Virus record (IMG/VR): IMGVR_UViG_3300037340_000044
Location: 1 to 64,000 of that record
Direction: 5' to 3' (one strand)
Origin: a virus
Length of the DNA: 64,000 bases
Shown here: positions 13,036-43,630 of the stretch, in pieces
How the letters are laid out: each line of letters begins with the position of its first letter
Position numbering within the stretch: the stretch's first letter is position 1
The notes under the pieces: model-generated
Database searches by the model: none
Told to the model about the DNA's origin: nothing
The model's input: only the letters and a program-made list of their open reading frames with translations
Made by a program: the position numbers and the translations under genes

Positions 13036-15855
13036 ATGCCTACGCCTCCTCCACTAAATGTCATTCCGAGCACGCCGCTCAGCAATACGGCCTCCAAGTT
13101 TAACGGGCCTGGTGCCATCGGTGTCGCATCGAACGGCACGGCCGTCTGCATCTACGGCGTCGGCATTCAGAACGACAATACGAGCGGCGGCCTGTATTGC
13201 ATCACCTCGACTAACAACGGCGGCACATGGTCAGCTCCAACGACGCTGATCTCTCCAGTGGCCGGCAACGCTATCCCGATTCGATGCACTCGGATCACGA
13301 CTCTGGCAAGCGGTCATATGCTCGCTGCCATCGAACAATCGGCAAACGCCAGTGCCGGCAATCCCGGCAATGCTTACATCCTGGTATCGACAGACAACGG
13401 AACGACCTGGACAGTAGGCACTGTCATAAGCCCGCCTGCCAGCCTGGACGGTGCCATTTCCTATGGTCAGATCATCGAGATTTCTTCGGGCGGCGACCTC
13501 TGGCAGTGCTGGTATGGCTGGACCGATGTGCCAGGAAACGACACTTTCCCGTTTATCATGCAGTGTCCGTCTGGATCGGACCCTCTTACTGGTAGTAACT
13601 GGGTGCTGCTGGGCGGCTCTCTCAGTGCAGCGAGAGTAATGCCGGTCGGACCTCCGTACTTCAACGAGACGGATGTGTGCCAGGTAAATTCGACGACCTA
13701 CGTTGCCGTGGCTCGTCGGCAGAGTAACCCGCTTTACACGGCGATCACGACTAACAGTGGATCGACATGGAGTGCGCCAGTTCAACTCGCTGACCAGAAT
13801 GGCAAGGAGACAGTAACCGGCGTGTCACCAGCACTATTAGTGCTAAGCGATGGGAACATTTTGCTGACGTGGGGGGAACGAGGCAACATAGACGGTCAAG
13901 GTGGCATGGGGTCTATGGTTTCCGCAAATGGCGGAAGTACTTGGCTGATAGAGGCAATGCCGTTCTACCTCAGCAAAGCCTTGTACACAAATCTGGACAT
14001 TTCGTATGCGTCTAACTGCCAGCTTTCGACCGGTGACATTTACGCGGTCGTTTATCTGGCATCAAATCAAACCGGCGAGCCGTTTTATGGCTTCCCTTGG
14101 AGCGAGTCGTGGGCTGTAAGCCCTCCCGCATCAACGAATCCGTACTATAACTTCGGAGTTATACCAGTCATGGCGTTCACAGAATTCTTCACTGACGCGG
14201 CTAACGGGAGCAACCTGAATGCCGGGGATGGTCTAAGCGGCGCGTATCAGGCCGCTCCGACGATGAGCGACACGGCGGGCACCGGCACATACTCGCGTGG
14301 CGGTGGGGCGACCGACACGTACACGTCAGGGGCTACTAACGGAACGGTAGTAGTCGGCCAGTTCATCTCAATTTACAGTAGTGGCGCGACGATTCCGGCA
14401 TACCAAGCTAGAATCACGGCAGTCAGTGGGGGTAGCGGATTAGCGTGGGTAATCACGCTGAGCAACACGACGGCGAGCGGTACGCGGCCGACGAACGCTT
14501 CAACGTACCTCGCTCAGGTTGGTGGGTCATGGGCAGGGCCGAGCGGGACAGTTACATTCCCGTTCAACTTCCTAACCGACGCGTCGACGGACGCGGCTGG
14601 CGACCGGCCTCGGGTCAACATGCGCAACAACGCCGTGTACTCAATGACTGCGACCCTGGCAATCCCAACAGGGTTCCAATACTGCTGGCTTGAGGGGTTC
14701 ACCAATACACCCAGCGACGGAGGAAAGGCTGTAATAGATGCTGGTGGCAACGCAATAGGTGTGGTGACAGTCGCCAGCGGCTGCTTCACGATTGGCAGCT
14801 TGATCGTGCAAAACAACAGCGGCAACAACGATGGGCTCGTGGGCGGCAACGGCAGCAATGTCCTCTTCAATTGCATCGCCCGCTATATCGGCGGTTCTGG
14901 CCTGGTTCCAAAGGGCACGTTGATAGAGTCTGAGGCTTATGCGTGTAACCAGTCCAATACGGCGAACAAGGCAGGCATTACAAATACGAATGGAACGTAT
15001 ATGTCGCGGTGTTGGGCGCACGACAATATCGGAACCAACGTCAGCGGATTTTTCCTTCAAGGTGGGTGCAATTTGGCGCTCTGTGAGGCTAGTGGAAACG
15101 GCCTGCACGGGTGCTTTCACAGCGGAAACAGCACATTATCTCTGGTTGGCTGCGATATTTATGGCAACGGGGTGTCGGCCACAGCGGATGGATTGCACAC
15201 GACGGCGGGTCTCACTCCGCTGTACATTGAAAACTGCAATTTAGTGTTAAATACCGGATGGGGAATCAACGCGACGAGTAACATATGGTTGCTGATGCGC
15301 AACTGCGGATTCGGCAGCGGCACGCAGGCGAACGGCAGCGGTCAGTACAGCATTTCCACAAGCAACCCGGCTATCGAAATTGCAGGAACGATCACCTACG
15401 CCAGCGGCGTGACGCCGTGGATCGACCCCGTCCACGGCAACTTCGACATCAACCTCGCCGCCGCTGAGAACACTGGACGCGGCAACTTCACGCAGACGCC
15501 GTACCTCACCGGCACGATCACCAACGCCACGAACACGAGTCCCATCGTCGTTACCAGTGCGGCCCACGGCTTGACCAGTGGGGCGAGAGTCGTGATAACC
15601 GGTGTGGGCGGCAACACGAACGCGAACGCGACGTGGACGGTAAACGTGGTGGACGCGAACACGTTCAACCTGATCGGCTCAAGCGGCAACTCGGCGTACA
15701 CGTCGGGCGGGGCCTGGACGAGCGGGCCGAACAGCAACTGGACGGCTGCTACGACGGTGGGCTACCCAGACGTGGGGGCGGCGACGCATCAGGCGGCGGC
15801 GGGTGGCGGGGGCGTAATCGTGAATCCAGGCACAACGGGCGGCTGCGGAGCATAA
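13036..15855 (+). CDS. Virion fibre/spike-like protein: BNR (Asp-box) sialidase-like domain, pectin-lyase-like beta-helix and FCCH-like domain
   Basis: Asp-boxes STNNGGTWS, STDNGTTWT, TTNSGSTWS, SANGGSTW; N/G-rich helix repeats; ITNATNTSPIVVTSAAHGL.SG..V.ITGV.G. Confidence 0.8.
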   Translation: MPTPPPLNVIPSTPLSNTASKFNGPGAIGVASNGTAVCIYGVGIQNDNTSGGLYCITSTNNGGTWSAPTTLISPVAGNAIPIRCTRITTLASGHMLAAIEQSANASAGNPGNAYILVSTDNGTTWTVGTVISPPASLDGAISYGQIIEISSGGDLWQCWYGWTDVPGNDTFPFIMQCPSGSDPLTGSNWVLLGGSLSAARVMPVGPPYFNETDVCQVNSTTYVAVARRQSNPLYTAITTNSGSTWSAPVQLADQNGKETVTGVSPALLVLSDGNILLTWGERGNIDGQGGMGSMVSANGGSTWLIEAMPFYLSKALYTNLDISYASNCQLSTGDIYAVVYLASNQTGEPFYGFPWSESWAVSPPASTNPYYNFGVIPVMAFTEFFTDAANGSNLNAGDGLSGAYQAAPTMSDTAGTGTYSRGGGATDTYTSGATNGTVVVGQFISIYSSGATIPAYQARITAVSGGSGLAWVITLSNTTASGTRPTNASTYLAQVGGSWAGPSGTVTFPFNFLTDASTDAAGDRPRVNMRNNAVYSMTATLAIPTGFQYCWLEGFTNTPSDGGKAVIDAGGNAIGVVTVASGCFTIGSLIVQNNSGNNDGLVGGNGSNVLFNCIARYIGGSGLVPKGTLIESEAYACNQSNTANKAGITNTNGTYMSRCWAHDNIGTNVSGFFLQGGCNLALCEASGNGLHGCFHSGNSTLSLVGCDIYGNGVSATADGLHTTAGLTPLYIENCNLVLNTGWGINATSNIWLLMRNCGFGSGTQANGSGQYSISTSNPAIEIAGTITYASGVTPWIDPVHGNFDINLAAAENTGRGNFTQTPYLTGTITNATNTSPIVVTSAAHGLTSGARVVITGVGGNTNANATWTVNVVDANTFNLIGSSGNSAYTSGGAWTSGPNSNWTAATTVGYPDVGAATHQAAAGGGGVIVNPGTTGGCGA

Positions 15856-17479: not shown

Positions 17480-17686
17480 ATGCACATGAAAAGCCCCGAT
17501 GAACTCGCCCGCTCTCTCAAATACAGCAAGAGCGAAGCAGACACCGAAAAGGGCGGCTCGCTAGCTACGGCTGCCGGCAAGCTTGGGGAAGCTGGCGGCC
17601 CAGCAAGAGCGAAGGCGCTTTCGCCTTCACGCCGGGCAGCGATTGCCAGGCTTGGGGCACTCGCGATGCACAGGCGACGGGGGTAG
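17480..17686 (+). CDS. Small basic protein (GG.ARAKALSP.RR..IAR type); candidate head-internal nucleic-acid-binding protein
   Basis: GGAG RBS; GEAGGPARAKALSPSRRAAIARLGA. Confidence 0.7.
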   Translation: MHMKSPDELARSLKYSKSEADTEKGGSLATAAGKLGEAGGPARAKALSPSRRAAIARLGALAMHRRRG

Positions 17687-17716: not shown

Positions 17717-17740
17717 GCCGCCCCCTCCTGGCGGCTTTTT
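17717..17740 (+). terminator. Intrinsic terminator
   Basis: GCCGCC-ccctcct-GGCGGC-TTTTT. Confidence 0.75.
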
Positions 17741-17761
17741 CCACTCCGCTCGCCGGCCGCC

Positions 17762-17890
17762 TGTACCAGCGTATACAGCTTTACGTGCATACACTAGTGT
17801 ACGTGCATACACATAGTGTACGAAGTGCCAGGTGTATACGTGTATACACCTACTGTGCACCGTGCACGGTGTACCACGTACGTGTACGGT
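17762..17890. repeat. Alternating purine/pyrimidine tract of short palindromes and tandem repeats
   Basis: 2x TACGTGCATACAC(A)TAGTG, GGTGTATAC-gt-GTATACACC, many GTAC/GTGCAC. Confidence 0.85.
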
Positions 17891-17927
17891 GGGGCGCATA
17901 AATTCGCCAGAAATTCCGCCATTTCCC

Positions 17928-17956
17928 TGCAACATTCGCGGCCGGCGAGCGTATTC
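17928..17956 (+). promoter_or_regulatory. ECF-type promoter copy 1 (TGCAAC-N16-CGTATTC)
   Basis: One of four spacing-conserved intergenic copies. Confidence 0.8.
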
Positions 17957-18022
17957 TATGTTGTCGAGCCAACTGGTTCGCCGCGAACGGCCCGCGACCT
18001 GGCCGATGGAAGGATGCGACCG

Positions 18023-18253
18023 ATGAACGAATATCTGCCCGCTACCGTGCGTGCGAAGTGCCCATGCGGATGCGATGATCGCGAGTTTGACCTGCCGCCG
18101 CTGGGCATGCGCTACTCTGATCCGGCCTACCAGCATTACCTGCGCACTGGCGAATACCCGCCCGCGCCGCTGACGTTCCGCTGGTCGAGCGTGCGGGAGC
18201 TGCTGATAGTCGCGGTGTGCGGTGTGGCCGCTGGCGTGCTGGCCAGCTTGTAA
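18023..18253 (+). CDS. Small protein with C-terminal transmembrane helix
   Basis: GGAAGGA RBS; follows promoter copy 1. Confidence 0.65.
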   Translation: MNEYLPATVRAKCPCGCDDREFDLPPLGMRYSDPAYQHYLRTGEYPPAPLTFRWSSVRELLIVAVCGVAAGVLASL

Positions 18254-18260
18254 AATGCTC

Positions 18261-18289
18261 TGCAACTATTCAGCGCGGTGTGCGTATAC
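18261..18289 (+). promoter_or_regulatory. ECF-type promoter copy 2 (TGCAAC-N16-CGTATAC)
   Basis: Intergenic, exact 16-bp spacer. Confidence 0.8.
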
Positions 18290-18353
18290 CTTAGTAGTCG
18301 GACACAACCGACAACGCTAACGGCCAGCGAACAGGCCGCAAGAGGGCGAGACA

Positions 18354-18584
18354 ATGGATCAGAAAACGTGCAGATGCGAAGTATTCGTCATCGTCGATGA
18401 GGACGGAGACTACTCCGTGGGAGCTGACCAGGACAGCGCGTCCGAACATTATGTCGATAACTACGGCGGCGACGTGCGGCGCGTGGTCAGGATCGTTTTG
18501 GAAGTGCCGCTGCCGACGATCATCGAACTGACCGGCACCGTGCCACCGGAAGGCACGTCGGCCACGCTAACCGTGTCGCAGTAG
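18354..18584 (+). CDS. Acidic hypothetical protein
   Basis: GAGGG RBS; follows promoter copy 2. Confidence 0.75.
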   Translation: MDQKTCRCEVFVIVDEDGDYSVGADQDSASEHYVDNYGGDVRRVVRIVLEVPLPTIIELTGTVPPEGTSATLTVSQ

Positions 18585-18690
18585 GCCGGCAAGCCGTGTA
18601 CTCCCGAGCGGCAATTGATCGGGAGCGCTTGCAATTGCGATTGCAGGCGAGCGAACGGGTCGCTATCTGACCCGATAATGGGGTGACGAC

Positions 18691-19245
18691 ATGAGCAAAA
18701 CCAAAGAAGACAACCTGCACAGCATCGGCAAGTGCGCCATGGCATCCATCCGAGAAATGGTGGACGCCCTGGAATGCGATTACGACAGGCTGACCGATCT
18801 GCGAGACGAGCGCGACAGCTACGAGCCCAGCGACGGCGAAGAGCGTCTGACGCAGACCGAGTGCGCGACCAATGCCGAGCAATGGGCATTCGACAACAGC
18901 GAAGAGGCGGAAGAGCTGGCGGCGTTGGAAGCGGACGCCGGCGAATGCACGGACCGCGAAGACGCCGAGCAGCGCATCCACGATGACCCGATGAGCCTGG
19001 AATACCGGTCGGGCTGGTGCGCGAGCAAGGAAGAGATGGAACCGGAAGAATTTGTCTTGCTGCTGACCACTGGCGGCCCGGCGGTGCGGATCATCGGCGA
19101 AGTGAGCGACGGGGAACCGGATCGGCCACGGCTGCAAACCCAGGACTGGGGAACGAGCTGGACGGACTACTTCGGCGGCGAAGATCATTCGGACGACTGC
19201 GAAGCGCTGCTGACCTACTGCCGATGCTTCTGCATGGAATCGTAA
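18691..19245 (+). CDS. Highly acidic early protein
   Basis: Very D/E rich; EF.LLLTTGGPAVRI.G. Confidence 0.8.
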   Translation: MSKTKEDNLHSIGKCAMASIREMVDALECDYDRLTDLRDERDSYEPSDGEERLTQTECATNAEQWAFDNSEEAEELAALEADAGECTDREDAEQRIHDDPMSLEYRSGWCASKEEMEPEEFVLLLTTGGPAVRIIGEVSDGEPDRPRLQTQDWGTSWTDYFGGEDHSDDCEALLTYCRCFCMES

Positions 19246-19300
19246 TCGTGAGAACGGCAGGCCGCGCCGATTAGCGGCCAGAATCCGAGAGGGCAACGAA

Positions 19301-20050
19301 ATGAATCTCGCAGAGAAATACCGCCCGCGACACTTCGCGGGCATCGCAGGCCAGCGTGCGGCAGTCGAGCAAATCCAGCGCGTGCTGGCGCGTGGATGGG
19401 GCGGTCGCGCGTGGTGGCTGTCCGGGCCGAGCGGCACGGGCAAGAGTACGATGGCGTACCTCATTGCCCAGCACGGCGCCGATCCGTTCTACATCGAAGA
19501 ACTGGATGCGCAGCTACTCACGCCCGCAAAGCTTCGGGACGTGGAAGACGGTATGCACTACCGGGCAATGAGCGGCAAGCCTGGCAAGGCTTATCTGGTG
19601 AATGAGGCGCACGCGCTCATTCCCAGCGTCGTGCGGCTGTTGCTCGTGGTGTTGGAGCGACTGCCAGAACACGTCGCGGTGATCTTCACCACGACGGCCA
19701 CGGCAACCCCATCCCTGTTCGGATCTGATGAAGGCGGCCCGCTGCAAAGCCGATGCACCCAGATTGACTTGGAGGCGAGCGCGGAGACGCAACGCGCCAT
19801 GGCGCAGCGTGCCAAGCGCGTCGCGCAGGCGGAAGGTATCGACGGGCTGCCGGATGAGGTGTACGTCGATGCGTTGGCGCAGTGCCGGGGCAACCTGCGC
19901 ATGCTGATCCAGCGTATCGAGAGCGGTCGATTCTCGGAGGATGCGAGCAAGCGGAACGCGCTGAAGGGCGAGTTGGCAAATTTGCCGACTGGCAAAACGA
20001 CTGCCAAGCGGCGCGAGGCAATCATGGCCGAGCTAGGCGGTGCGGCGTGA
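19301..20050 (+). CDS. Clamp-loader-like AAA+ ATPase (DnaX/RFC-like, short)
   Basis: LAEKYRP..F..IAGQ, GPSGTGKST, YLVNEAH, PLQSRC, GNLR. Confidence 0.88.
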   Translation: MNLAEKYRPRHFAGIAGQRAAVEQIQRVLARGWGGRAWWLSGPSGTGKSTMAYLIAQHGADPFYIEELDAQLLTPAKLRDVEDGMHYRAMSGKPGKAYLVNEAHALIPSVVRLLLVVLERLPEHVAVIFTTTATATPSLFGSDEGGPLQSRCTQIDLEASAETQRAMAQRAKRVAQAEGIDGLPDEVYVDALAQCRGNLRMLIQRIESGRFSEDASKRNALKGELANLPTGKTTAKRREAIMAELGGAA

Positions 20051-20238
20051 CCCATCAACAGCGATTCGTCGCCCGCGCGTTCGTCAACGTGTTCACGGGC
20101 ATCCTGGGAATGATTCTGCCGGCGCCTGCGAGGTGTGCGAAGTGCGGCGGCCGGCCGCGGTCGAAGTGTGCGATCCACGGAACCCATATGTGCGGGCGAT
20201 GCCGTTGCCCGCGATGCAAGGAGAAACGACATGGTTAA
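20047..20238 (+). CDS. Small Cys-rich protein
   Basis: GTGA overlap; CAKC, CAIH, CGRCRCPRC. Confidence 0.5.
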   Translation: MTHQQRFVARAFVNVFTGILGMILPAPARCAKCGGRPRSKCAIHGTHMCGRCRCPRCKEKRHG

Positions 20239-20458
20239 GCAAGTGACAATTCACGGTGCGGACTGCGAGATCGAGCTGCGGCGTGACCTGGCCGGCACGG
20301 CGGTAGCGCTGCAAGCGGAACGGGAGAAGGTAGAGGCGCTGCTGGCGGTCCTTCACCCTGGCGTCATCGGCCTAATTCACAACTACCACTGCAAAGCGGA
20401 CAGCGATGCGGCGCTGGCCGCAATCGCCACGGCAACGAAGGGAGCGCAGCAATCGTGA
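20231..20458 (+). CDS. Hypothetical protein
   Basis: AAGGAG RBS; MVKQVTIHG. Confidence 0.65.
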   Translation: MVKQVTIHGADCEIELRRDLAGTAVALQAEREKVEALLAVLHPGVIGLIHNYHCKADSDAALAAIATATKGAQQS

Positions 20459-20664
20459 TCGACTACGAGACCCTGACGAATCCGCCGGAAGAGGGGACGG
20501 TGGCACGGATACAATTCGAGACCATGATATTCCGCCTCAACTACGGCATGCGGCATGACCGTGACCCAAACTGGCAACGACTACATCGGCACTTAGCGAT
20601 GAAAGCAATCGGCACGCTGCGCTATCTGACCAATCGGCCACGGAAAGGAGAGCAGCAATCGTGA
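20455..20664 (+). CDS. Hypothetical protein
   Basis: GGAG RBS, GTGA overlap. Confidence 0.65.
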   Translation: MIDYETLTNPPEEGTVARIQFETMIFRLNYGMRHDRDPNWQRLHRHLAMKAIGTLRYLTNRPRKGEQQS

Positions 20665-21047
20665 GCAGCATCACACTACACCGCACGGGAGCGCCGCCCC
20701 TGGCGTTCCGAGGACAGGAAATCGCATCGGCCGCGTTGCCGAGCGAGTGCAGGAATCACTCGATCGAGGTGTACCGGACAGACGGTGGCCGGCTCGTCGT
20801 TTGCGTGGAGTACACGAGCGATTTCAGGACCGAGCTGGACCATACAGACGCTTACTCGTTCATTACTCCAGAGGGAGCGATGGACTGGTTACGGCATTAC
20901 GACTGCACTAGCTATGTGCAGGGATGGCCTGTGCTTCCGCAATACGAGGATAGGCAGCGGCGCTTGCTGCTGCTGCTGCGCGAGCGGTTCGCGCAGCTGG
21001 TGACGATGGTCGCGAATCAACTGGCCATCGTGGAGCAAATACCATGA
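20661..21047 (+). CDS. Phage hypothetical protein
   Basis: ITLHRTGAPPLAF.G..IA....IEVYRT.GG; AAGGAG RBS. Confidence 0.75.
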   Translation: MSSITLHRTGAPPLAFRGQEIASAALPSECRNHSIEVYRTDGGRLVVCVEYTSDFRTELDHTDAYSFITPEGAMDWLRHYDCTSYVQGWPVLPQYEDRQRRLLLLLRERFAQLVTMVANQLAIVEQIP

Positions 21048-21376
21048 ACCCGAGTGAATCGCGGGCGCGTGCCTGCAAAATTGCAGAATCGATGGGCTGG
21101 TTTCTCGGCCAGGACGAGAACCGCAAGCCGAAGCTGTTTCGGCCGACGCATCCGGCACGACTGTTCGACACCTGGCTAATCGCGCTGACCTGGCTAATGG
21201 GTCAGCGCGAACTGCTGCCGAAGGGCGAGGTGCGCCAGCCAGCCGCGCAGCCGGTAAGTAGTCGGCAAATAGTCGGCAATCAGTCATCAGGGGGATTAGC
21301 CCCCCGGCGAGCAACGGCGGCGGACGCCAGCATACCGATGGCCGCTATCGTGCCTACGGCGCGGCGGATCGGCTAG
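21044..21376 (+). CDS. Hypothetical protein
   Basis: GGAG RBS, ATGA overlap. Confidence 0.55.
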   Translation: MNPSESRARACKIAESMGWFLGQDENRKPKLFRPTHPARLFDTWLIALTWLMGQRELLPKGEVRQPAAQPVSSRQIVGNQSSGGLAPRRATAADASIPMAAIVPTARRIG

Positions 21377-21393
21377 ATTTATCGCTCGCCGCG

Positions 21394-21422
21394 TGCAACG
21401 AATGGGCGCGGCGAGCGTATAC
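21394..21422 (+). promoter_or_regulatory. ECF-type promoter copy 3 (TGCAAC-N16-CGTATAC)
   Basis: Intergenic, exact 16-bp spacer. Confidence 0.8.
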
Positions 21423-21459
21423 AGTGGTGGAGACGCGAGACACAATCAAACTGGAGACG

Positions 21460-21561
21460 ATGATGACAACTTTTTCGCTGGTGGTTCTGGGGATCGGCCT
21501 GGTGGTGTGGGTGGTGAAGTGTGCGGTCGAAACCTGGGGCGATTGCGACGAGGCGAAGTAG
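21460..21561 (+). CDS. 33-aa single-TM peptide MMTTFSLVVLGIGLVVWVVKCAVETWGDCDEAK
   Basis: GGAG RBS; first ORF after promoter copy 3; below the ORF-track cutoff. Confidence 0.55.
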   Translation: MMTTFSLVVLGIGLVVWVVKCAVETWGDCDEAK

Positions 21562-21597
21562 ACCCAGAGACGCGAGACACCTAACGGGATACGAACG

Positions 21598-21819
21598 ATG
21601 AACGGAAACATTCGGTTGCAGGACGTTGACGACACTACCCGCGCCAAGGTCGCGGTAATCGTCCAGGCAGCTCGAGATTGGCAGGGCGAGCGCATCACCT
21701 GGGCAGAGTTCATGCGACGGGCCGACGTGACGGTTTCTGGCGAGTGCTGCTTGGCCGGCATCGGCTACAACACCGACGGGGCCGAAATCGAAAGCCGCGC
21801 TTTGGCAGCCGCGGTATGA
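21598..21819 (+). CDS. Hypothetical protein
   Basis: ORF in the early operon. Confidence 0.6.
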   Translation: MNGNIRLQDVDDTTRAKVAVIVQAARDWQGERITWAEFMRRADVTVSGECCLAGIGYNTDGAEIESRALAAAV

Positions 21820-21911
21820 CCACCCGAGCCGGACCAAGGGCGGCGAGTACAATGAACCGAGTCCCCACGGCGCCGCCCAGCATGGCCTTTGGCCGGTGGC
21901 GCTCGTGGGGA

Positions 21912-21938
21912 ATGTTCTGCGCGGAACATGTGTACAAT
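21912..21938 (+). promoter_or_regulatory. Operator-like palindrome ATGTTCTGCGCGGAACAT plus TACAAT -10 box 6 nt before the ATG (likely leaderless)
   Basis: Directly visible upstream of the terS-like start. Confidence 0.55.
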
Positions 21939-21944
21939 GGAATC

Positions 21945-22721
21945 ATGGACACAATCCCAATAGTGGCCGAGCAACCCATTACTGCACCCATCGTGCCTTG
22001 GAAGCCAAAGCAGGAGCGCGGTAGCGCAGAACCGATGCCGGGAAGGTGTGGAGGAAAGCTAAAGGACACCGACCCGCCGCGCTACTGCACGCGCGTCGAT
22101 AGGCGTACGGGAGGACGGTGCTTTCTGCATGGTGGCATGACACCGCGCGGACTAGCAAGCTCCAACGCGACCGCAGGTGGCATCTACTCGAAATATATGC
22201 CAGCCGGCCCGATGGCAGACGCCTATGCGCGCATGCATGCGGATCGGCAGAGCCTACACAGTCTAGCCGAGAAGATAAAGGTGATGGAGTCGTTCTGGGA
22301 AGACGACCTATCCCAGCTCGCAGGGGCAGAGATCGCGACCATCACAGCCATGATCGGCAATATTGCAGACGGCCTAACGCGAGAGAAGGAACCGATATCG
22401 GCCGAGGAAGGCGCTGCGCAGCTTCGCCAACTCGCCGCCACAGCGCAGGACGCACGCGCAGCCAGGCGCAGAGCCATTGCGGTAGCGCACGATCAGGCGA
22501 AGCTTGTGGATACGGACCTGCGCAGGCAAGCTCAGCAGGAGCATATGGTTACGACAGAGCAGGCCATATCGTTCGCCTACGCGGTCGGAGACGGCATGAA
22601 GGAGCTGCTAGGCCGCCTAGGAGCCCAGCAGAGCGACTATGCCGAACTGCGCGACCAGATACAACGAGCGGCTGCGAGGTGGCTCATGGGCGCGAATCCA
22701 GACGACGTGAAAACGCAATAA
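21945..22721 (+). CDS. Terminase small subunit-like protein (HGGxSTG-type motif)
   Basis: RCGGK....C.....GRCFLHGGMTPRG..SSNA..GGIYSKY followed by a helical region; upstream of TerL. Confidence 0.7.
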   Translation: MDTIPIVAEQPITAPIVPWKPKQERGSAEPMPGRCGGKLKDTDPPRYCTRVDRRTGGRCFLHGGMTPRGLASSNATAGGIYSKYMPAGPMADAYARMHADRQSLHSLAEKIKVMESFWEDDLSQLAGAEIATITAMIGNIADGLTREKEPISAEEGAAQLRQLAATAQDARAARRRAIAVAHDQAKLVDTDLRRQAQQEHMVTTEQAISFAYAVGDGMKELLGRLGAQQSDYAELRDQIQRAAARWLMGANPDDVKTQ

Positions 22722-22726
22722 TCGCG

Positions 22727-22755
22727 TGCAACAAACGGCGCCGGCGAGCGTATTC
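22727..22755 (+). promoter_or_regulatory. ECF-type promoter copy 4 (TGCAAC-N16-CGTATTC)
   Basis: Intergenic, exact 16-bp spacer. Confidence 0.8.
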
Positions 22756-22822
22756 TCTGGTAGACAGGCAACACGCCTGCAATGCGAATCGGCCGCGACC
22801 AGCCGAGAAGGACACCACGACC

Positions 22823-22975
22823 ATGACCTACCGTATCGATCTGCTCCGCAGGCTGCTCCAGGCCATAGGTAAGCGCCCACGCCTCTCTCGTAACGCAGCC
22901 TGCAACGCCATCGATGACGCCGGTATAACTCTGTCATGGTGCCGCTGGGCTGCCAGACATGGCATCACGTGGTAA
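22823..22975 (+). CDS. Small basic hypothetical protein (50 aa)
   Basis: AAGGA RBS; follows promoter copy 4. Confidence 0.55.
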   Translation: MTYRIDLLRRLLQAIGKRPRLSRNAACNAIDDAGITLSWCRWAARHGITW

Positions 22976-23651
22976 GCAGGCCAGCGAAGGTACGATCATG
23001 AGTGGAAGGATGGGAGTAATGATGCAATTCGAGCCGATCATTGAGCCGGTCACCTACTGCAACGGCCGTAAGGCATGGACATGGCGCGTGCTGTTCCGTG
23101 ACGATGCTGGTGAGCCAGTCGGCGTCACGTCTCAGTATCGCGGCCGTCAGCGCACGGAAGCACCTTCGCGCCGCGCAGCGCTGAAAGCCGCCAAAGCCGA
23201 GATCGGCCGTGTGCGCCACCATCGGCTGTTCCTGATCCGCGTGACTCGCGAGGACATCGCCAACGGAACCGGGCGCAGCATTCATGACTGCCCCGTCGCG
23301 CAAGCCCTCTATCGCGAGAAAGAGACGATGGGCCTCGACAAATGGCGGCACGGCTTCCGCGTCGAAACCTACGCGTGCTTTATCGATGCCGATGGCCTGG
23401 TCCTCACCGACAGGGACGGCACGGAGCACGCCATCGATCCGCCCGACGTGGTTTTCCCATGCAAGAACGAGCGCGGCTGGTGCGCCGAGAGCATGATGGA
23501 ATGGACGATGCTGTTCGACGACTGGTATGACTCGCAGGGCGTCACGGCGCGCGAGTGGCGCCGCGAACACGACGGGGACGGCAAGCCTGGCAAAATGTGG
23601 CCCGTGAGCTTCGTGCTGGACCTGGACGAATTGCTTGTCGCGGAGAGCTAG
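22959..23651 (+). CDS. Hypothetical protein (true start probably ~23019)
   Basis: IRVTREDIANG....CPVAQAL motif; GGAG before MMQF. Confidence 0.7.
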   Translation: MASRGKQASEGTIMSGRMGVMMQFEPIIEPVTYCNGRKAWTWRVLFRDDAGEPVGVTSQYRGRQRTEAPSRRAALKAAKAEIGRVRHHRLFLIRVTREDIANGTGRSIHDCPVAQALYREKETMGLDKWRHGFRVETYACFIDADGLVLTDRDGTEHAIDPPDVVFPCKNERGWCAESMMEWTMLFDDWYDSQGVTAREWRREHDGDGKPGKMWPVSFVLDLDELLVAES

Positions 23652-24613: not shown

Positions 24614-24745
24614 TCAGTTCAGCCCCAGCTTGTGCCGTATGAAGTCGGAGAGCGATGCGAAGCCGGCATCGCGGGCGGCTTTCTCGCAGGCGGCGCGTTC
24701 GTCGGCGGTGAGGCGGACCTTGATGTTGTGGGTTCTGTTTTCCAT
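24614..24745 (-). CDS. Ribbon-helix-helix protein (MobC/CopG-like, 43 aa)
   Basis: MENRTHNIKVRLTADERAACEKAARDAGFASLSDFIR. Confidence 0.8.
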   Translation of the reverse strand: MENRTHNIKVRLTADERAACEKAARDAGFASLSDFIRHKLGLN

Positions 24746-25050
24746 CACTCGTTCTCCGCGGCCCAGCGAGCGAGGGCGGTCTGGGACAGTCGGCGCTCGA
24801 AGTCGTCGTGGGCGTCGAGTATGTCTTTGGCGAGGTTGAAGCGGCCTTCGGAGAGGAAGCCAGGTAGTTCCTGGGACAAGCACCATACCGGCCACATTTT
24901 CGAGACCGGCGATGGGCCGAACTTCACGGCGTCTTTCAATCCTCCAGGTATGATCAGCATGTCGAAAGGTTGCGCAGCCTGTGACGTACTGGCGACCAGC
25001 AAGCCGGTCGGCGTCTTGCCTACGTCGTACTTTTGTACCCAGGGTGTCAT
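24745..25050 (-). CDS. Hypothetical protein
   Basis: GAGG RBS before MTPWVQKY. Confidence 0.6.
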   Translation of the reverse strand: MTPWVQKYDVGKTPTGLLVASTSQAAQPFDMLIIPGGLKDAVKFGPSPVSKMWPVWCLSQELPGFLSEGRFNLAKDILDAHDDFERRLSQTALARWAAENE

Positions 25051-25625
25051 GGCGTCCTCTTGCTGTGCGGGCACTCGGGGATATGCGGCAGGCCAGAGCC
25101 GAGCATCCAGTCGGGGCATATGCAAATTTGCGGATTCGCGTAAACCACTGGGTCTCCGAAGGTTGGCGTGCCATATCCGAGCGGTATATCTGTCAAAACG
25201 ACTGCCGATCCGAAGGCCACTTGTTTGCTTGGCGTCTCAATGACAACGCAAGGCATGCCGTCAGTGAAGTGATGGACGCCATACTTGTTCGGTTCGCCAC
25301 ACGTGCAGGCCACATGGACGGCGAGCCGTTGGCGCAGGTCGGCGTTCTCGGCTTGCAGGCACTCCACGATGCCAGATTGTGCCGCGCCGCCTGTCTGGTC
25401 GATGAGTTCTTGGGCCACGGCGAGGATGTGTTCGTTGAAGCGCTGGGTTGGAATCGGGTCGATGGTGCAGCCGGGCGCCGACGCGATCTGCGAGCGCAGG
25501 CGGTCAGTCTCTTCGCGCAGGCTGACCAGTTCGTTAGCAACGTCTTCGAGGATGTTCACAAGATCGGCTGTGTCTTCGATGTTGGTCAGTCGCTGCCGTA
25601 TCCGATTGAGTCGTTCATCGTTCAT
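25047..25625 (-). CDS. Hypothetical coiled-coil/Cys protein
   Basis: AGGAG RBS before MNDERLNRIR; divergent from terL. Confidence 0.65.
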   Translation of the reverse strand: MNDERLNRIRQRLTNIEDTADLVNILEDVANELVSLREETDRLRSQIASAPGCTIDPIPTQRFNEHILAVAQELIDQTGGAAQSGIVECLQAENADLRQRLAVHVACTCGEPNKYGVHHFTDGMPCVVIETPSKQVAFGSAVVLTDIPLGYGTPTFGDPVVYANPQICICPDWMLGSGLPHIPECPHSKRTP

Positions 25626-25678
25626 GGTTGGTCTCCTATCGGCTATCATATTCACATCGAAGCTTGTGGGACAGCAAA

Positions 25679-27430
25679 ATGGCAAAAGACTTCATCAGCG
25701 TGAAGAACATCGCGGAGCTGATGGGCTCACGGGTGTGTCCGCAGCAGGGGCGCTTCACGCAAGCGGAACTGGAGCGCTATCGGGCGGACCCGGTGGAGTA
25801 TGCGGAGCAGGAGTTGAAGATATTCACGCTGACGCCGGTCCAGAAGGACATCCTGCGCTCACTGGTCATCCCGCCGTACCGCACGATGGTCAAGTCCGGC
25901 CATTCAGTTGGGAAAACCATGGTGGCGGCCGTGGCGGTGAACTGGCGGTACGACTGCTTCGATCCTGGCGTAGTCATCAGCACGGCCCCGACCGACCGTG
26001 ATGTGAAGGATTTGCTGTGGGCAGAGATTCGTGCGCAGAGGCTTGCTGCTGGATTGCCGATGGACTTCATCGGCGACGTGGCGCCTGAGATGCGCACGGG
26101 GCCGCAGCACTACGCGAAGGGGTACACGGCAAGAGGCGGCGTCAGCTTTCAGGGGCGGCATCCCGAGTACCTGTTCTTCGTGTTCGACGAGGCGATGGGC
26201 GTTGCCAATCCGTTCTGGGTATCCACGGAGACGATGTTCAAGAGCGACCCGGAACACGGATGGCTCGTCATCTTCAACCCGACCGATGTTACCAGCATCG
26301 CGTATCAGGAAGAGGGCAAGGGCGAGTTGGTGAATAAGCACACCGGCTTGCCGACATTATCGGACGATCCAGATGCGGAGTTTAAGTCGAAGTGGAACGT
26401 GTTCACGATGAGTGCCCTGGATCACCCGAACATCACGGGAGAAGGAGCGCAGATCAAAGCAGCGGTCAGCATGAGCCAAGTGGATACCTGGGTCAAGGAC
26501 TGGTGCGACCCGTTAAGGCCGCAAGACGAGCATCTGGCGACCGATATCGAATGGCCACTCGGAAGTAATCGATGGTGGCGGCCCGGTCCGGAGTTCATGT
26601 CGCGCGTTCAGGGCGTCTGGCCGAGCGAAGGCACAACATCAGTCTGGAAGGACAGCCTGTGGGAAGTGTGCGCCAAGCCGATCCTGGCAGCAACTTTTCC
26701 GCTCGATGAGTGGCCCGTCCTCGGCGTTGACCTGTCGAACACCAGCGGCGTCACCGCCATGCACGACCGCTGGGGACCGTACTCTCTGCGGCACCTCGAA
26801 GCGAACGGCTGGAGCGGACCCAGGAAGAAGGGCGAGGTCATTCAGCGTTGCCGCGAACTTGCGGAACTAGTTAACCGGGCAATGGAGCAAGCTGGCCGGC
26901 AGACGCGCTGCGTGCCGACGCAGATTCGCGTGAACATCGACGATGCGGTAGGCGGCCGCGATCTTGTGGGACATTTACAGGAAGCGGGCTACAATGCGTG
27001 CAGCATCAACGCGAGCACGGTTGATGGCGTGGACCTGCGCAAGTATCCGAAGATGCGGTCGATGCTGTGGTTTCAGACCGTAAAGAAGGCCGAAGCGGGG
27101 TTCGTGAAGTTCGGGCTGCTGCCGAAGCGTCAGATAGTCGAGTTGAAGTTGCAAGCGATGGCTCCCGAGTGGCAGCTAGATGGAGCTGGCAGGCGAGTGG
27201 TGGAGGAAAAGCCGCGGACGGAAGAACGTCTGGGGAGGAGTCCGGATGGTCTGGACGCAGCCAATCTTTGCTGGCATGATACGAACTTCGTGGCACCTTC
27301 AGCGATCGACGTGCAGCGGCTGACGGTGCAGGAGCGGTTCGCGCAGCAACACGACGAGCAGCCGCAGGTTTACGGCCACGGGCCGATGATGGGACGGACG
27401 CGGCGGGGAATTTTTGGGCAAGGTCGATGA
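25679..27430 (+). CDS. terL: Terminase large subunit
   Basis: VKSGHSVGKT (Walker A), FFVFDEA (Walker B), IFNP, nuclease LGVD...SPDGLDA. Confidence 0.93.
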   Translation: MAKDFISVKNIAELMGSRVCPQQGRFTQAELERYRADPVEYAEQELKIFTLTPVQKDILRSLVIPPYRTMVKSGHSVGKTMVAAVAVNWRYDCFDPGVVISTAPTDRDVKDLLWAEIRAQRLAAGLPMDFIGDVAPEMRTGPQHYAKGYTARGGVSFQGRHPEYLFFVFDEAMGVANPFWVSTETMFKSDPEHGWLVIFNPTDVTSIAYQEEGKGELVNKHTGLPTLSDDPDAEFKSKWNVFTMSALDHPNITGEGAQIKAAVSMSQVDTWVKDWCDPLRPQDEHLATDIEWPLGSNRWWRPGPEFMSRVQGVWPSEGTTSVWKDSLWEVCAKPILAATFPLDEWPVLGVDLSNTSGVTAMHDRWGPYSLRHLEANGWSGPRKKGEVIQRCRELAELVNRAMEQAGRQTRCVPTQIRVNIDDAVGGRDLVGHLQEAGYNACSINASTVDGVDLRKYPKMRSMLWFQTVKKAEAGFVKFGLLPKRQIVELKLQAMAPEWQLDGAGRRVVEEKPRTEERLGRSPDGLDAANLCWHDTNFVAPSAIDVQRLTVQERFAQQHDEQPQVYGHGPMMGRTRRGIFGQGR

Positions 27431-27636: not shown

Positions 27637-27678
27637 TTAATTCTGCAAATTTGCAGAATATTGGTTTTTACCTATGCC
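27637..27678 (+). repeat. 42-bp element containing the 16-bp palindrome; identical copy at 54984-55025, interrupted copy at 29272-29321
   Basis: ttaattctgcaaatttgcagaatattggtttttacctatgcc. Confidence 0.92.
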
Positions 27679-28075
27679 AGACAACGTGAATCTCAGCGAA
27701 GTTCGCCGACTGCCGAGCATACCGACGATACTTGACCAGTCTCCGTTCACGAACGGCGGCAAACCGTCGCTGATGGATCGGGCGGACCAGTACGACAAGT
27801 TCCACTGCGATGCGCCGGAAAACCTGTTGTTACAGACGGAGTTCTCGCACCTTGACCGCGCCAACCTTATCCGTACGGCGAAGGCGATGAGCGAATTGCG
27901 TGACGTGTTCAAGCAGACGGCGCGCATCGAAGTCACGAATCAGGCATACATGGTGCTGGTGGACCGGCTGATACCGGCGATGGAAGGTTTGAACCGGCGT
28001 CTGGACCAATTGGAAGCGGCGATTCTGGCGCTAGCACCGAAGAAACGAAAACGAAAGGCGCTGGTGAAGAAATGA
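27674..28075 (+). CDS. Hypothetical protein
   Basis: ATG inside the 42-bp element; basic C-terminus. Confidence 0.65.
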   Translation: MPDNVNLSEVRRLPSIPTILDQSPFTNGGKPSLMDRADQYDKFHCDAPENLLLQTEFSHLDRANLIRTAKAMSELRDVFKQTARIEVTNQAYMVLVDRLIPAMEGLNRRLDQLEAAILALAPKKRKRKALVKK

Positions 28076-28458
28076 TGCAACCGATGCCAGGCAAGATCAT
28101 CGTCATCCAGGACGGCAGCCAAGAGAAGCGTGGCGGCATCATGGTGAGCCAGCGGTTCGCGCAGAAGGATCGTCCGATGACGGGCCGCGTGCTGGCAGTC
28201 GGCGTGGGCAAGCCGTGCGAATTGGACGACGGCGAAATCATGCGGCGTTGCAAGATTGCCATAGCGAACGGCAAGGACGGTCTATTTACGGAAATGGTCA
28301 ACATCGTTAAAGAAGAACGCCAGTCGCGCCCCGTCAGCGTGAAGGCCGGCGACCGCGTGGTGTTCAAGGTGTTCGCGGGCGACGGCATCGAGTGGACCGA
28401 TGGCAGCATGTGCAGGTGCGTCACAGAAGAGGATATTTTGGCGAGGATCGAAGAATGA
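28072..28458 (+). CDS. groES: GroES/Cpn10 co-chaperonin with an internal insertion
   Basis: QPMPGKIIV....EKRGGI....GRVLAVGVG...VSVKAGDRVVF..FAG..I.....VTEEDILARIE. Confidence 0.88.
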   Translation: MMQPMPGKIIVIQDGSQEKRGGIMVSQRFAQKDRPMTGRVLAVGVGKPCELDDGEIMRRCKIAIANGKDGLFTEMVNIVKEERQSRPVSVKAGDRVVFKVFAGDGIEWTDGSMCRCVTEEDILARIEE

Positions 28459-28979: not shown

Positions 28980-29002
28980 GCAAAGTACACAAGGAGTGAG
29001 CG

Positions 29003-29251
29003 ATGGCAACGGCATGCGAAGGCAAATACGGTGAAATCACCGCTGAGAAGAAGCAATTTCACCCGAACGAGCCTGTGTTTTTGTTGCGTGCTACCGATCC
29101 GCTCGCCCCGGCCGCTATATTTGACTATTGGGCAGCATGCAAACGCGCTGGATGCTCAGCCGATCATTGCAAGGCCGCCCACGATCATGCTCACCGGATA
29201 CTCGACTGGCAGCGAGATCATCCCGAACTTGTCAAAAAGCTGCCAGATTAA
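29003..29251 (+). CDS. Phage hypothetical protein (EPVFLLRA.D.LAP family)
   Basis: AAGGAG RBS; motif recognised. Confidence 0.75.
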   Translation: MATACEGKYGEITAEKKQFHPNEPVFLLRATDPLAPAAIFDYWAACKRAGCSADHCKAAHDHAHRILDWQRDHPELVKKLPD

Positions 29252-29318
29252 GCGTGTTGTTGCCGAAAAATTTAATTCTGCAAATTTGCAGAGTTTCCAG
29301 AAGTGATGGTTTTTACCT

Positions 29319-32250: not shown

Positions 32251-32266
32251 AGGAGCGCGTAGACCA

Positions 32267-32491: not shown

Positions 32492-32493
32492 CG

Positions 32494-37652: not shown

Positions 37653-37700
37653 TGCTATACTAGCGGTCAATGGGACGTTTCGGTTCGCGAAAGCGAGCCG
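37653..37700 (+). promoter_or_regulatory. Extended -10 (TGcTATACT) plus 33-nt hairpin leader of the portal gene
   Basis: Same -10/leader spacing as at 32494. Confidence 0.78.
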
Positions 37701-40528
37701 CCGTGCTGCCATTCCTACAGAACCACCGGCCGACAGTCAATCGGCAGCCGAATCGGTTTCCGCAAGAGGAAAACCGCAACGGCTCGGCCACGTCCCGGTT
37801 CGCGCGCGTCGTCGGCGCCGTCCCCGGCCCAGACGCCGACTTCGCGTTGCCACACATCCTGCAATTCGGCGGCATCATCGGCGGCGCTTGGCGGACTTAT
37901 TACCACGGCCAATACGACGAGGCGATGTACTTCTCGCGTGAGGACGCGCTAGCCATGCGCAACGATGCGTGGCTCATGTCGCTCATTGACGAACGCAAGC
38001 GAGCCGTAGCCACGCTCAAATGGCATGTCGAAGTCGATAACCCACGCGATCCGATACAGAAGGCGCTCGCGGACGGGCTGACGCAACTTTACAAGAACTT
38101 GCCGCGATACACAGACCTGACCATGAGCGGTCTGGAAGCGCTCTGGTTCGGGCGGGCGGGCGATCAATTCGATTGGGTGTACAAGAACGTACAGGTGCCC
38201 GCGATGCCGCGGCTGGCGTCGGCACCGGGCGTGCCGGCGAGCATGGTTGCCAGCGAAGGCGAGTACGAGACGCGTAAGGTTCTGTGGATGCGGAACCACG
38301 AGCCGATCGAAGGCGACAAGATCGACTACGACTTCGACGGCACGCCGTACATTCTCGTCAGCCCCATCGTGGCACTGAACACCTACCAGTCGGCAAACGC
38401 TGAATTCCGCCGCTATCACGACGGCCGGTGGCAGCGCGATGACCAGCTACCGCCGCGACCGATGGTGCCGGACTTGAAGGCGGAACACGCTTCACTCGGG
38501 TTCACGACGATCGGCGGCAAAGCTCTATTTCTCAAGGGCAACTGGCGGTCACGCTTCCGTATCCACAAGCATCAGTGCATCGATAGCAGCTACTGGCAGC
38601 CGTGGAAGGCTGGCAGCTTGTACGGCGTCGGCATTCGATCGGTGGTGTTCTGGTACTGGTGGCTCAGACAAGAATATCTCGCCAACATCACGGACTGGTG
38701 TGCGCGCACGGGACTCGGCATCAAACTCTGGTACTACGAACAGGGGAACAACGCGAGCAAGTCTGCAATATTGCAGGCCGCGAAAGACCAGAGCGACAAG
38801 GTGAACATCGCGGTTCCCTACGATCCGAACAACCCGAACCGGCCGGCAGTGGACATCGTGGAGATGGCAGGCACAGGGGCTGATCTTCTGTCTACGATCG
38901 TGAAGCACGTTGAGGAGTACATCGAAAGATATATCGTCGGCCAGAACATGACCGGGGGTAGCGACGACTTCTCCGCTGGTTTCGGCGACAAGGGCCGCAG
39001 CGAACTTGCGAGCCGCACGAACTGGCAGATTACGAAGCTGGACGCTCGCAAGTTCGACGACACGAACACGACAGATATCCTGGATAATATCAAGCGATTC
39101 AGCTACCCGGAGTATGCAGAGATTCCGGCAAGGCTGGTCAGTGAGGTTGATGATCCGGACATCAAGAAATGGTCGGAAGGCGCAAAGGTGTTCGTGGAGA
39201 TGGGCGGCGAGATCGTCGAAGATGAGGCCCGCGAGAAGCTGGGGCTGTCGAAGCCGCGGCCGACGGACACGACCATCGGCGGCGCGGCAGCCTTGCAGGC
39301 GCAGCAGGCCACGAGCGGGCACGTGAAGCCACCGGGAGACTTGGCGCCAGGCGGCGAGCAAGCAAACGGACAGGCGAATGACAAACCAAATCCGCTTGAG
39401 GGGGCAGTTGACACAGCGGACAGGCTGAAATTCAGTTGGGTAACGATGGGCGGTCACGTCGATGGCGACAAGAAACACGTCGGCGGATTCCATGTCGAGG
39501 TTGACGAGAACGGCAAAATCCAGCGCGGCGGCACTCCCGAGATGCACGGCAAGCCAATCCACGAAGCCATCGGAGCCCTTGAACGGGTAGACAAGGATCG
39601 CAAAAAGGCTGCCGAGAAAGAGAAGGAAGCTGAGCAAAAACCGGCCGAAAATCCGCCGGAAATTAATTCTGCAAATTTGCAGAATAAACCCGCCGCGCAG
39701 CCTGAAAAGCTTACAGACGAGCAGAAATCGCAGATGCTCGCCGACAACGAAGACCTGGCAATCGGCATGGCGTACAAGAAAGCCAAGCAGGGCTACGGCG
39801 AGGTGGACGATCTGGCCCAAGAAGCGAATATCGCCATGCTGCAAGCGGCGGACGCCTGGGATGAATCGAAGGGGCCGTTCAAGAACTTCGCCTCCCGAGC
39901 GATCAACAACAGGTTCACGGATATTCTGCGAGCGAAGCAACGCCGGCCGCAGCAGCAGATGCCAGAGAGCTTCGACGCAGAGCAGCCGCGTGCTGATACG
40001 CGCTCCGATGATTTGCATGCTGCCATCGCAAAGTTGCCAGAGGCGGAGCGCAGCATCATCGGCAAGCTTCTTGAAGGGCAAACTGTAGAGCAGATCGGCG
40101 AGGCTTTAGGGCAACATAAGAGTACAGTGAGCCGTGCTGCCACCAAGGCGCGGGCTACGCTGAAAGAATTGCTGAGCAGTCAGTCATACGCGGAATTCGA
40201 GGAGAAGTTGCGATACGCCGACGGTCGCTCATCCGAGTACCGTCGCAGTCACAGCAAGACAGTCGAGCACGCCCTAGAGCGCTTGAGCGAGATTCCCGAG
40301 GACGCCACTGACGAGGAAGTGGAAGCGGTCATCGCGGCGATTGCCAAGCAGTTCACGGTGGACGAGTTGAAGGAACTGGCACGCGAGTACGGCGTGACGG
40401 GTTCGACCAAGGGTAAGCTGATCGACGGCTTGATCGAGAAGTGCGTCAAGGAGAAGGAAACCTACGAATCGCAGGAAGAAAAGGCGTACTATGACGAGTG
40501 CCGCGCCGCTCTGGAGAAATACCTATGA
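37670..40528 (+). CDS. Portal protein (Mu gp29/DUF935-like) fused in frame to a sigma-70-family sigma2+sigma4 domain; start may be GTG 37703
   Basis: D..L.S...RKRAV, EALWFG, G.GIRS..FW.WW, IVGQNMT, EAREKLGL; then DDLAQEANIAMLQAADAWDESKG.FKNFASRAINN and LPEAER...EGQTVEQIGEALG.HKSTVSR. Confidence 0.85.
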   Translation: MGRFGSRKRAAVLPFLQNHRPTVNRQPNRFPQEENRNGSATSRFARVVGAVPGPDADFALPHILQFGGIIGGAWRTYYHGQYDEAMYFSREDALAMRNDAWLMSLIDERKRAVATLKWHVEVDNPRDPIQKALADGLTQLYKNLPRYTDLTMSGLEALWFGRAGDQFDWVYKNVQVPAMPRLASAPGVPASMVASEGEYETRKVLWMRNHEPIEGDKIDYDFDGTPYILVSPIVALNTYQSANAEFRRYHDGRWQRDDQLPPRPMVPDLKAEHASLGFTTIGGKALFLKGNWRSRFRIHKHQCIDSSYWQPWKAGSLYGVGIRSVVFWYWWLRQEYLANITDWCARTGLGIKLWYYEQGNNASKSAILQAAKDQSDKVNIAVPYDPNNPNRPAVDIVEMAGTGADLLSTIVKHVEEYIERYIVGQNMTGGSDDFSAGFGDKGRSELASRTNWQITKLDARKFDDTNTTDILDNIKRFSYPEYAEIPARLVSEVDDPDIKKWSEGAKVFVEMGGEIVEDEAREKLGLSKPRPTDTTIGGAAALQAQQATSGHVKPPGDLAPGGEQANGQANDKPNPLEGAVDTADRLKFSWVTMGGHVDGDKKHVGGFHVEVDENGKIQRGGTPEMHGKPIHEAIGALERVDKDRKKAAEKEKEAEQKPAENPPEINSANLQNKPAAQPEKLTDEQKSQMLADNEDLAIGMAYKKAKQGYGEVDDLAQEANIAMLQAADAWDESKGPFKNFASRAINNRFTDILRAKQRRPQQQMPESFDAEQPRADTRSDDLHAAIAKLPEAERSIIGKLLEGQTVEQIGEALGQHKSTVSRAATKARATLKELLSSQSYAEFEEKLRYADGRSSEYRRSHSKTVEHALERLSEIPEDATDEEVEAVIAAIAKQFTVDELKELAREYGVTGSTKGKLIDGLIEKCVKEKETYESQEEKAYYDECRAALEKYL

Positions 40529-43602: not shown

Positions 43603-43630
43603 TTGACAAGGCAACCATAAACCGCATAAT
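43603..43630 (+). promoter_or_regulatory. sigma70-like promoter TTGACA-N16-CATAAT
   Basis: Near-consensus hexamers upstream of the head operon. Confidence 0.7.

Follow-up and report, generated by a model that had tools for sequence, protein, structure and literature searches.

Candidate ECF-type promoters in a permafrost and peat phage and a portal-fused sigma factor as their probable reader

Which sigma factor reads a set of near-identical promoter-like sites ahead of small genes in a phage genome, and at what point of the infection would it do so? The question is raised by the IMG/VR virus record IMGVR_UViG_3300037340_000044 (here referred to as G000), a 75,842-base-pair (bp) record of a phage that sequencing runs place in permafrost and peat; its first 64,000 nucleotides (nt) are called the window. 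Four sites, P1 to P4, share the sequence TGCAAC-N16-CGTAT and stand upstream of the large terminase gene, and the only sigma factor of this phage, of the extracytoplasmic function (ECF) type, is fused to its portal protein. Judged from sequence and setting, P1 to P4 are very probably ECF-type (group 4 sigma-70) promoters, and the phage's own ECF sigma factor is likely to be what reads them. That this sigma factor is delivered by the virion, making the promoters immediate-early, is a more tentative proposal.

Matches to TGCAAC-N16-CGTAT start at 17928, 18261, 21394 and 22727, all on the + strand, where 0.03 are expected from shuffled sequences and 0 of 100 shuffles reach four. The original prediction had named these positions, with an exact 16-bp gap to CGTAT(T/A)C, and had placed GGCGAG before CGTAT at three of them and GGTGTG at one; all of this was recovered. 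It had also held that the sites are confined to one region, and they do fall within a 4.8-kb block, none of them ahead of virion genes, with no further copy in the whole 75,842-bp record. That there are only four sites holds for the whole phage, because the record is probably complete: both of its ends (1–270 and 75,470–75,842) fall within a single (CTG/ATG)n array, and the far end is matched at 99% by bases 1–137, so that it is probably a closed genome broken in a repeat, not 78% complete as estimated. Counts of the commonest 5+5 dyads against Markov shuffles do not discriminate (4–6 copies occur by chance), and significance comes from longer patterns. The fuller four-site consensus, TGCAAC-N6-sSGCsGGyGwG-CGTATwC, in which spacer and -10 positions are also held in common, amounts to approximately 36 bits, which is beyond the reach of chance in a post-hoc search. 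When up to two mismatches are allowed, the four perfect sites are joined by five two-mismatch sites and by none with one mismatch (2.2 expected in all); since one-mismatch sites are absent, the four constitute a discrete class. No second promoter class was found in this genome by a 9-mer search of intergenic DNA.

The four sites are similarly placed with respect to genes. P1 (17928..17956, +, ending in CGTATTC) is the first site past a terminator-like hairpin at 17717..17742, and its leader runs for approximately 62 nt to the ATG at 18023. P2 (18261..18289, +, CGTATAC) begins 8 nt past the preceding stop; P3 (21394..21422, +, CGTATAC) begins 18 nt past the stop at 21376 and heads a 33-amino-acid (aa) membrane-like open reading frame (ORF) at 21460–21561; and P4 (22727..22755, +, CGTATTC) begins 6 nt past the stop at 22721 and heads the ORFs 22823–22975 and 22959–23651. 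The claim that the sites are intergenic and head small genes is thus borne out, with starts at 18023, 18354, 21460 and 22823 set by Shine-Dalgarno sites and leaders of 33–63 nt. At 18023 the start is backed by the G+C content at third codon positions (GC3), which is 0.77 within the gene and 0.58 upstream; a long GTG-started ORF spanning P1 is not credible on the same grounds.

The published signature of ECF promoters consists of AAC in the -35 element, CGT in the -10 element and a spacer of 14–17 bp (PMC5758882). All four sites carry AAC and CGT with a 16-bp spacer, and each lies upstream of, and is co-directional with, its gene, so the promoter class named in the original prediction agrees with the published consensus. 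The same AAC/CGT pair, 16-bp spacer and directly upstream placement are seen in the promoters of B. subtilis sigma-W/M/X (TGAAAC-N16-CGTA) and of Mycobacterium SigE/SigH (PMC5758882).

A variant fifth site, TGCAAT-N10-GGCGAG-CGAAC, occupies 18630..18658 (+), 61 nt ahead of the ATG at 18691, with AAT in its -35 and CGA in its -10 element; it is possibly a decayed or weak promoter. Past GGCGAG its sequence enters the leader element shared by the other sites directly, as though approximately 35 nt (the -10 element and first leader hairpin) had been deleted.

It might be asked whether the sites are promoters at all, or instead regulator-binding repeats or cassette junctions left by a duplicated promoterless leader-gene module. 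The partly conserved spacer (GGCGAG) is unusual for a promoter, and P1, P2 and their leader elements recur at 333–335 nt, which suggests a tandem duplication. A non-promoter reading is nevertheless highly improbable: two blocks at a constant distance of 16 bp, one orientation throughout, placement just past stop codons and 33–63 nt before Shine-Dalgarno sites, and A/T-rich upstream patches are all features of promoters. It is also at odds with the relatives described below, which hold geometry and position although the sequence changes.

The candidate reader is encoded at 37670..40528 (+), an ORF of 952 aa in which Pfam recognises Portal_Mu (1e-30), Sigma70_r2 (1.2e-11) and Sigma70_r4_2 (4.3e-6). 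Its ECF-type sigma2-sigma4 module (aa 687–835; 39728..40174, +) has r2 at aa 692–759, r4_2 at aa 780–831 and no r3, i.e., the architecture of an ECF sigma factor. Against TIGR02937 the module scores 81 bits (cut-off 42.9) over model positions 4–165 of 165, and in the PDB it matches the ECF factor SigE at 5e-9 in an end-to-end alignment. An AlphaFold2 (AF2) model has confidence values (pLDDT) of 73–85 in the sigma2 and sigma4 domains; its top Foldseek match is M. tuberculosis SigE (ECF), with SigH, SigW, SigL and AlgU ranking high and every listed match being a sigma factor. Four homologues conserve the core-binding sigma2.2 helix, DLAQEA, and the helix-turn-helix of sigma4. Together these matches uphold the claim of a portal-borne ECF sigma factor. 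The candidate reader thus belongs to the same superfamily as the cellular ECF sigma factors. It differs from cellular ECF systems in being carried on a phage genome, in having no anti-sigma factor recognised nearby, and in that no curated ECF subfamily or equivalog among the NCBIfam models reaches its cut-off. Furthermore, cellular ECF sigma factors usually autoregulate, whereas the portal-sigma gene has no promoter of its own class.

Approximately 1,500 portals of this family were found in a search of 1.8 billion representative proteins. Among the best 150 of these, lengths reach 4077 aa and, in one protein that was checked (P0007), a NUDIX domain follows the portal, but the sigma part is shared with P0002 only, a second fusion whose portal part is 60% identical; P0002 and the sigma-less portals P0003–P0006 were compared as proteins. 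Metagenomes and IMG/VR supplied the DNA of L126, L125, G001 and G006. A third fusion is found on L126, where a 1321-aa portal carries an ECF sigma domain. Because P0002 and L126 are independent fusions, the arrangement in G000 is no assembly artefact. In other relatives the same sigma lies within a protein of 719–835 aa just past the portal: L125 has a 560-aa portal followed by a 719-aa protein with the sigma, G001 (72 kb, CheckV 100%) has a portal followed by an 834-aa sigma protein that is 37% identical to that of L125, and in G006, whose contig ends before the promoter block, a 782-aa frame situated downstream of the portal contains the sigma. The sigma is hence fused to, or beside, a structural protein in six clade members. 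Against TIGR02937, P0002 (66.4) and L126 (57.1) score above the cut-off, and L125 (35.7) and G001 (36.5) below it.

Distant portal relatives (29–35% identity: G002, G007, G008, G009, G012, G013 and G014) mostly have free-standing ECF sigma genes of 188–323 aa that lie upstream of the portal gene or the terminase gene and are in some cases arranged in tandem. By comparison of these sequences, the head-module sigma looks like the derived state of an old phage-sigma lineage. It took an alignment of the terminase and a broadened alignment of the portal to bring up the relatives. In IMG/VR, neither the single fusion protein nor the initial portal alignment, nor the proteins of L126 and L125, gave a match; the sigma region, used as query in a word-based search of proteins, retrieved itself alone, and megablast and tblastn gave no match among cultured phages.

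If the phage's own sigma reads P1 to P4, relatives with a head-module sigma should carry matching sites, as the original prediction had proposed to check. Each of the three others with sequence upstream of the terminase has its own family. In L126 it is CGGAAC-N16-CGTATCT (five copies: 1102, 1399, 1749, 2367 and 2735), and in L125 TGAAAT-N16-CAACAWT (four: 31, 751, 2525 and 4761). The G001 family, GGAACA-N15-CGTNTAGG (CGT[ACT]TAGG), numbers 11–12 copies where approximately 0.05 are expected, at 577, 8931, 9419, 10312, 10625, 11562, 12614, 13761, 14501 and 16440 on the + strand and at 8908 and 49043 on the - strand; 10 of these 12 sites fall within 7.5 kb, each ahead of a small gene. The spacer is 16 bp in G000 and L126, and the distance from AAC/AAT to CGT/CAA is 16 in G001 and L125. 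Nearly all the relatives' sites are on the coding strand, and most are followed by a Shine-Dalgarno site and an ORF 35–60 nt downstream.

These families occupy corresponding places. The block lies 3–8 kb upstream of the terminase gene in G000, L125 and L126, and 6–13 kb upstream in G001 (according to tblastx synteny and the G001 layout), and a 66-aa gene (17486–17686) precedes it here, in G001 and in L126. Four block genes have orthologues in the G001 promoter block, and for three of them the orthologue stands behind a G001 promoter site. Gene 18354 corresponds to G001 10403–10603 (40% identical, E 2e-11), behind the G001 site at 10312, which is orthologous in position to P2; gene 18691 corresponds to 10704–11222 (58% identical, E 9e-55), behind the site at 10625, orthologous in position to the variant site at 18630; and gene 21678 corresponds to 13049–13669. 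Promoter positions are therefore conserved and hexamers lineage-specific, which is what co-evolution with a lineage-specific sigma factor predicts. In G000 and G001, the genomes that appear complete, none of these sites is found ahead of sigma, portal, terminase or head genes. A head-module sigma thus occurs together with its own ECF-geometry family, in a syntenic block, in four of four clade members with sequence upstream of the terminase, each lineage having its own consensus. Conversely, G003–G005, the terminase relatives examined for sigma that have a different type of portal, show neither a convincing match to sigma nor a promoter family of this kind, in line with what had been expected of relatives lacking the sigma. 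In G007, G009, G013 and G014, AAC-N16-CGT occurs at background frequency and their promoter families were not found; a loose 14-base motif scan of IMG/VR gave single chance matches only.

The same pattern bears on whether a host ECF sigma factor could be the reader, e.g., an envelope-stress sigma freed at adsorption or injection, in which case the phage sigma might serve other promoters, compete for the core enzyme or bind DNA inside the capsid. As a consensus, AAC/CGT is generic: AAC-N16-CGT is a common form that many bacterial ECF sigma factors could recognise, and the differing hexamers could mirror differing hosts. The species genomes hold no prophage relative and hence no clue to the host. 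It must also be borne in mind that the sigma-promoter pairing comes from four genomes of one clade, which are non-independent. Cellular ECF sigma factors are, however, normally held by anti-sigma factors, which makes those of a host unreliable for opening phage genes. Moreover, no promoter-like motif other than the ECF-geometry dyad is clearly repeated in any of the four phages, so that a host reader would leave the phage sigma without a visible target, and the relatives examined for sigma that gave no convincing match (G003–G005) are also without the promoter family. A host reader is accordingly rather improbable. The phage's own sigma is regarded as the natural reader because it is of the right class, the dyad is the sole one clearly repeated, and the consensus is lineage-specific at orthologous positions.

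When this sigma would act is a separate matter. In the programme proposed here, each promoter would drive a unit of small genes, preceded by a short structured leader, within the conserved block upstream of the terminase. The sigma module would be made as the C-terminal part of the portal, enter the capsid with it (12 copies) and be freed there by cleavage; it would then exit with the DNA at the next infection, bind host core RNA polymerase and switch on the block at once. Delivery is considered the most economical programme because the sigma gene lies in the head module without a promoter of its own class, while the promoters head early-looking genes, i.e., small ORFs and a clamp-loader-like replication gene. 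Effector domains fused to portal or MuF proteins have likewise been predicted to be packaged and injected (Iyer et al. 2017, PMC5512222). The whole chain, from ECF promoters and own sigma through cleavage and capsid delivery to a block switched on at once, is put forward as a working proposal that stops short of being probable. With similar reserve, it can be suggested that soil and peat phages of one clade carry a sigma factor within the capsid, as portal C-terminus or as portal-adjacent cargo, with one sigma-promoter pair per lineage.

Several points weigh against delivery. Portal proteins normally remain in the capsid, and release of the sigma would need cleavage. Two sites, RLKF/S (aa 585–589; 39422–39436) and LRY/AD (aa 847–851; 40208–40219), flank the sigma module, but the motif [LIVM][KR][FY][SA] was rejected as evidence for cleavage, being loose enough to occur by chance. 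The portal gene has a -10-like box of its own, TATACT, 8 nt before its ATG, so that the fusion could be made early and act without delivery, and the free-standing sigma genes of the distant relatives indicate that the lineage can manage without a head-module sigma. The characterised phage sigma factors are all made after infection (PMC12276001). Finally, the sequencing runs consist of assembled contigs, which show neither transcript ends nor the ends of the genome, and those of the RNA run are short and uninformative on 5' ends.

Some of these points lead to a competing programme, in which the phage's ECF sigma reads P1 to P4 only after synthesis in the infected cell, as whole fusion or fragment, and the block is a middle or late class. 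In one variant, by analogy, sigma activity could be withdrawn as portal-sigma is built into proheads; such a switch, coupled to morphogenesis, would loosely resemble FlgM/sigma-28. Such timing has a precedent in phiEco32 gp36, which acts on middle and late promoters (PMC12276001), and it accords with the box directly ahead of the portal ATG and with the ordinary sigma genes of 188–323 aa in distant relatives. It sits less well with the fusion or juxtaposition of sigma and structural protein in six clade members, and small unknown ORFs and a clamp-loader-like replication gene would be odd things to switch on only at portal synthesis. The ten closely spaced sites of G001, each ahead of a small gene, also resemble an early host-takeover region. 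Synthesis in the cell is on balance rather unlikely, though a stronger contender than a host reader.

Both programmes have partial counterparts among known systems. As with phiEco32 gp36, SPO1 gp28 and T4 gp55, a phage sigma would redirect host core RNA polymerase to phage promoters (PMC12276001). Those three are free-standing early or middle products that read middle or late genes, whereas here the sigma is fused to or adjoins the portal in the head module, and its presumed promoters head a block of small non-structural genes and are absent from virion genes. In the preferred reading, by virion delivery, the likeness is to the virion RNA polymerases (RNAP) of N4 (vRNAP) and of the phiKZ type, in which capsid-packed machinery reads a few clustered early promoters (PMC4496689, PMC13434306). 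Unlike in N4 and phiKZ, only a specificity subunit of approximately 150–260 aa would be delivered, the host core would still be needed, and delivery is here a proposal. With the portal- and MuF-fused effectors and polyvalent proteins (PMC5512222) the fusion shares a C-terminal domain on a Mu-type portal, encoded in the virion module; it differs in having matching DNA targets on the phage genome, and the word 'sigma' occurs 0 times in that survey. Pro-sigma factors such as BldN (PMC7826278) and B. subtilis pro-sigma-E/K likewise have a long N-terminal extension to remove, but here the extension is a structural protein of 580 aa. In full-text literature searches, neither a fusion of portal and sigma nor a bacterial-type sigma factor packaged in virions was found described, and the retrieval filters of the ECF reclassification paper could not capture phage ECF sigma factors (PMC7826278).

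Three ways are known in which a phage opens its programme: through the housekeeping sigma of its host, through a polymerase that it injects, or through injected enzymes by which the polymerase of the host is modified. Injection of a sigma factor, if real, would be a fourth way to start and the sigma-only counterpart of the N4 virion polymerase. Even without delivery, a phage clade has diverged probable sigma-promoter pairs with four consensus sequences and one geometry, which naturally form a set of ECF switches that may be orthogonal. The hypothesis is testable without phage growth, by combining sigma modules and promoters in E. coli or in vitro.

The original prediction had further placed sigma-70-like boxes at five structural-gene places. 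One of these is a strong match: TTGACA-16-CATAAT at 43603..43630 (+), an 11/12 match ahead of the head operon and the only strong sigma-70-like promoter found. Another, at 12874, is an extended -10 element (TGGTACAAT), and the other three are merely -10-like hexamers. Overall, sigma-70-like sites are no commoner than in shuffles. There is a single convincing sigma-70-like promoter, and the case for host sigma-70 reading the late genes is thin.

The gene block behind the promoters extends from 18023 to 23651 (+) and ends at approximately 23.65 kb against a few minus-strand genes. Its small ORFs are of unknown function, and it also includes a clamp-loader-like AAA+ gene (19301–20050); Pfam and PHROGs gave no match to block genes except that of the clamp loader to phrog_5846 (3e-31). 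The large terminase gene, which served as the synteny anchor, follows at 25628..27430 (+; phrog_2, 6e-20).

The P1 leader is structured (17957..18022, +), and leaders of the same design occur at 18290–18353 and 22756–22822 (repeat families D5 and D10). Each of the P1, P2 and P4 leaders contains two hairpins, the first of which varies in sequence with its pairing kept (CGAGCC/GGTTCG, GTCGG/CCGAC, CAGGC/GCCTG), and the element GCGAACGGCCnGCGACCnGGCC is common to all three approximately 39 nt before the ATG and is also present ahead of gene 18691. The leaders matched no Rfam family, and a tRNA search found nothing. At the L125 site 4761, a hairpin and T run lie approximately 120 nt downstream with no obvious ORF (4761–4900), and this promoter may make a small RNA.

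The hairpin upstream of P1, GCCGCCCCCTCCTGGCGGC followed by TTTTTCC (+), resembles an intrinsic terminator and would close the upstream transcription unit. Between it and P1 lies a palindrome array (GTGTAC / GTATAC / GTGCAC; 17748..17950, no strand assigned) whose units span approximately 135 bp (17760–17895), bracketed by a perfect 13-nt inverted repeat (17748–17760 / 17938–17950) whose second arm is the P1 spacer. From its sequence, the array may be an operator or set of operators, an origin or a packaging site; a lone CGTATAC occurs at 17770 within its region. In the permafrost DNA run X1, a contig connects 17431 with 18906 through 9 letters of different sequence, i.e., a variant or relative without the terminator, palindrome array, P1, P2 and first two small genes. 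In the small reverse block between the promoter block and the terminase, the minus-strand gene 24614–25174 encodes a C-terminal NikA-like ribbon-helix-helix (1.9e-6) and may be a regulator.

The portal gene (37656–37700) and a radical S-adenosylmethionine (SAM)/B12 gene (32494–32540) begin with the same 31 nt, ATGGGACGyTyCGGTTCGCGAAAGCGAGCCG, which contain a GAAA-loop hairpin and start in both cases 8 nt past a -10-like box (TATACT or TAGCAT); their mRNAs may be leaderless and under common control. A sequence resembling those that flank the sigma module, VRY/ADASGHE (41264–41275), stands at the N-terminus of a 225-aa protein at 41225 and is similar to HYADAAGHE past the P0002 portal domain. 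All three may be sites of a maturation protease, but the motif is a loose one.

Between the terminase and portal genes, which adjoin in L125, approximately 10 kb (27674–37643) hold several methyltransferases, a 2-oxoglutarate (2OG)-Fe(II) oxygenase-like gene and a B12-binding radical SAM enzyme; the segment may be a DNA-modification island. A terminator-like palindrome of 16–20 bp, ATTCTGCAAATTTGCAGAAT, occurs at two intergenic places, 27640–27659 and 29277–29292.

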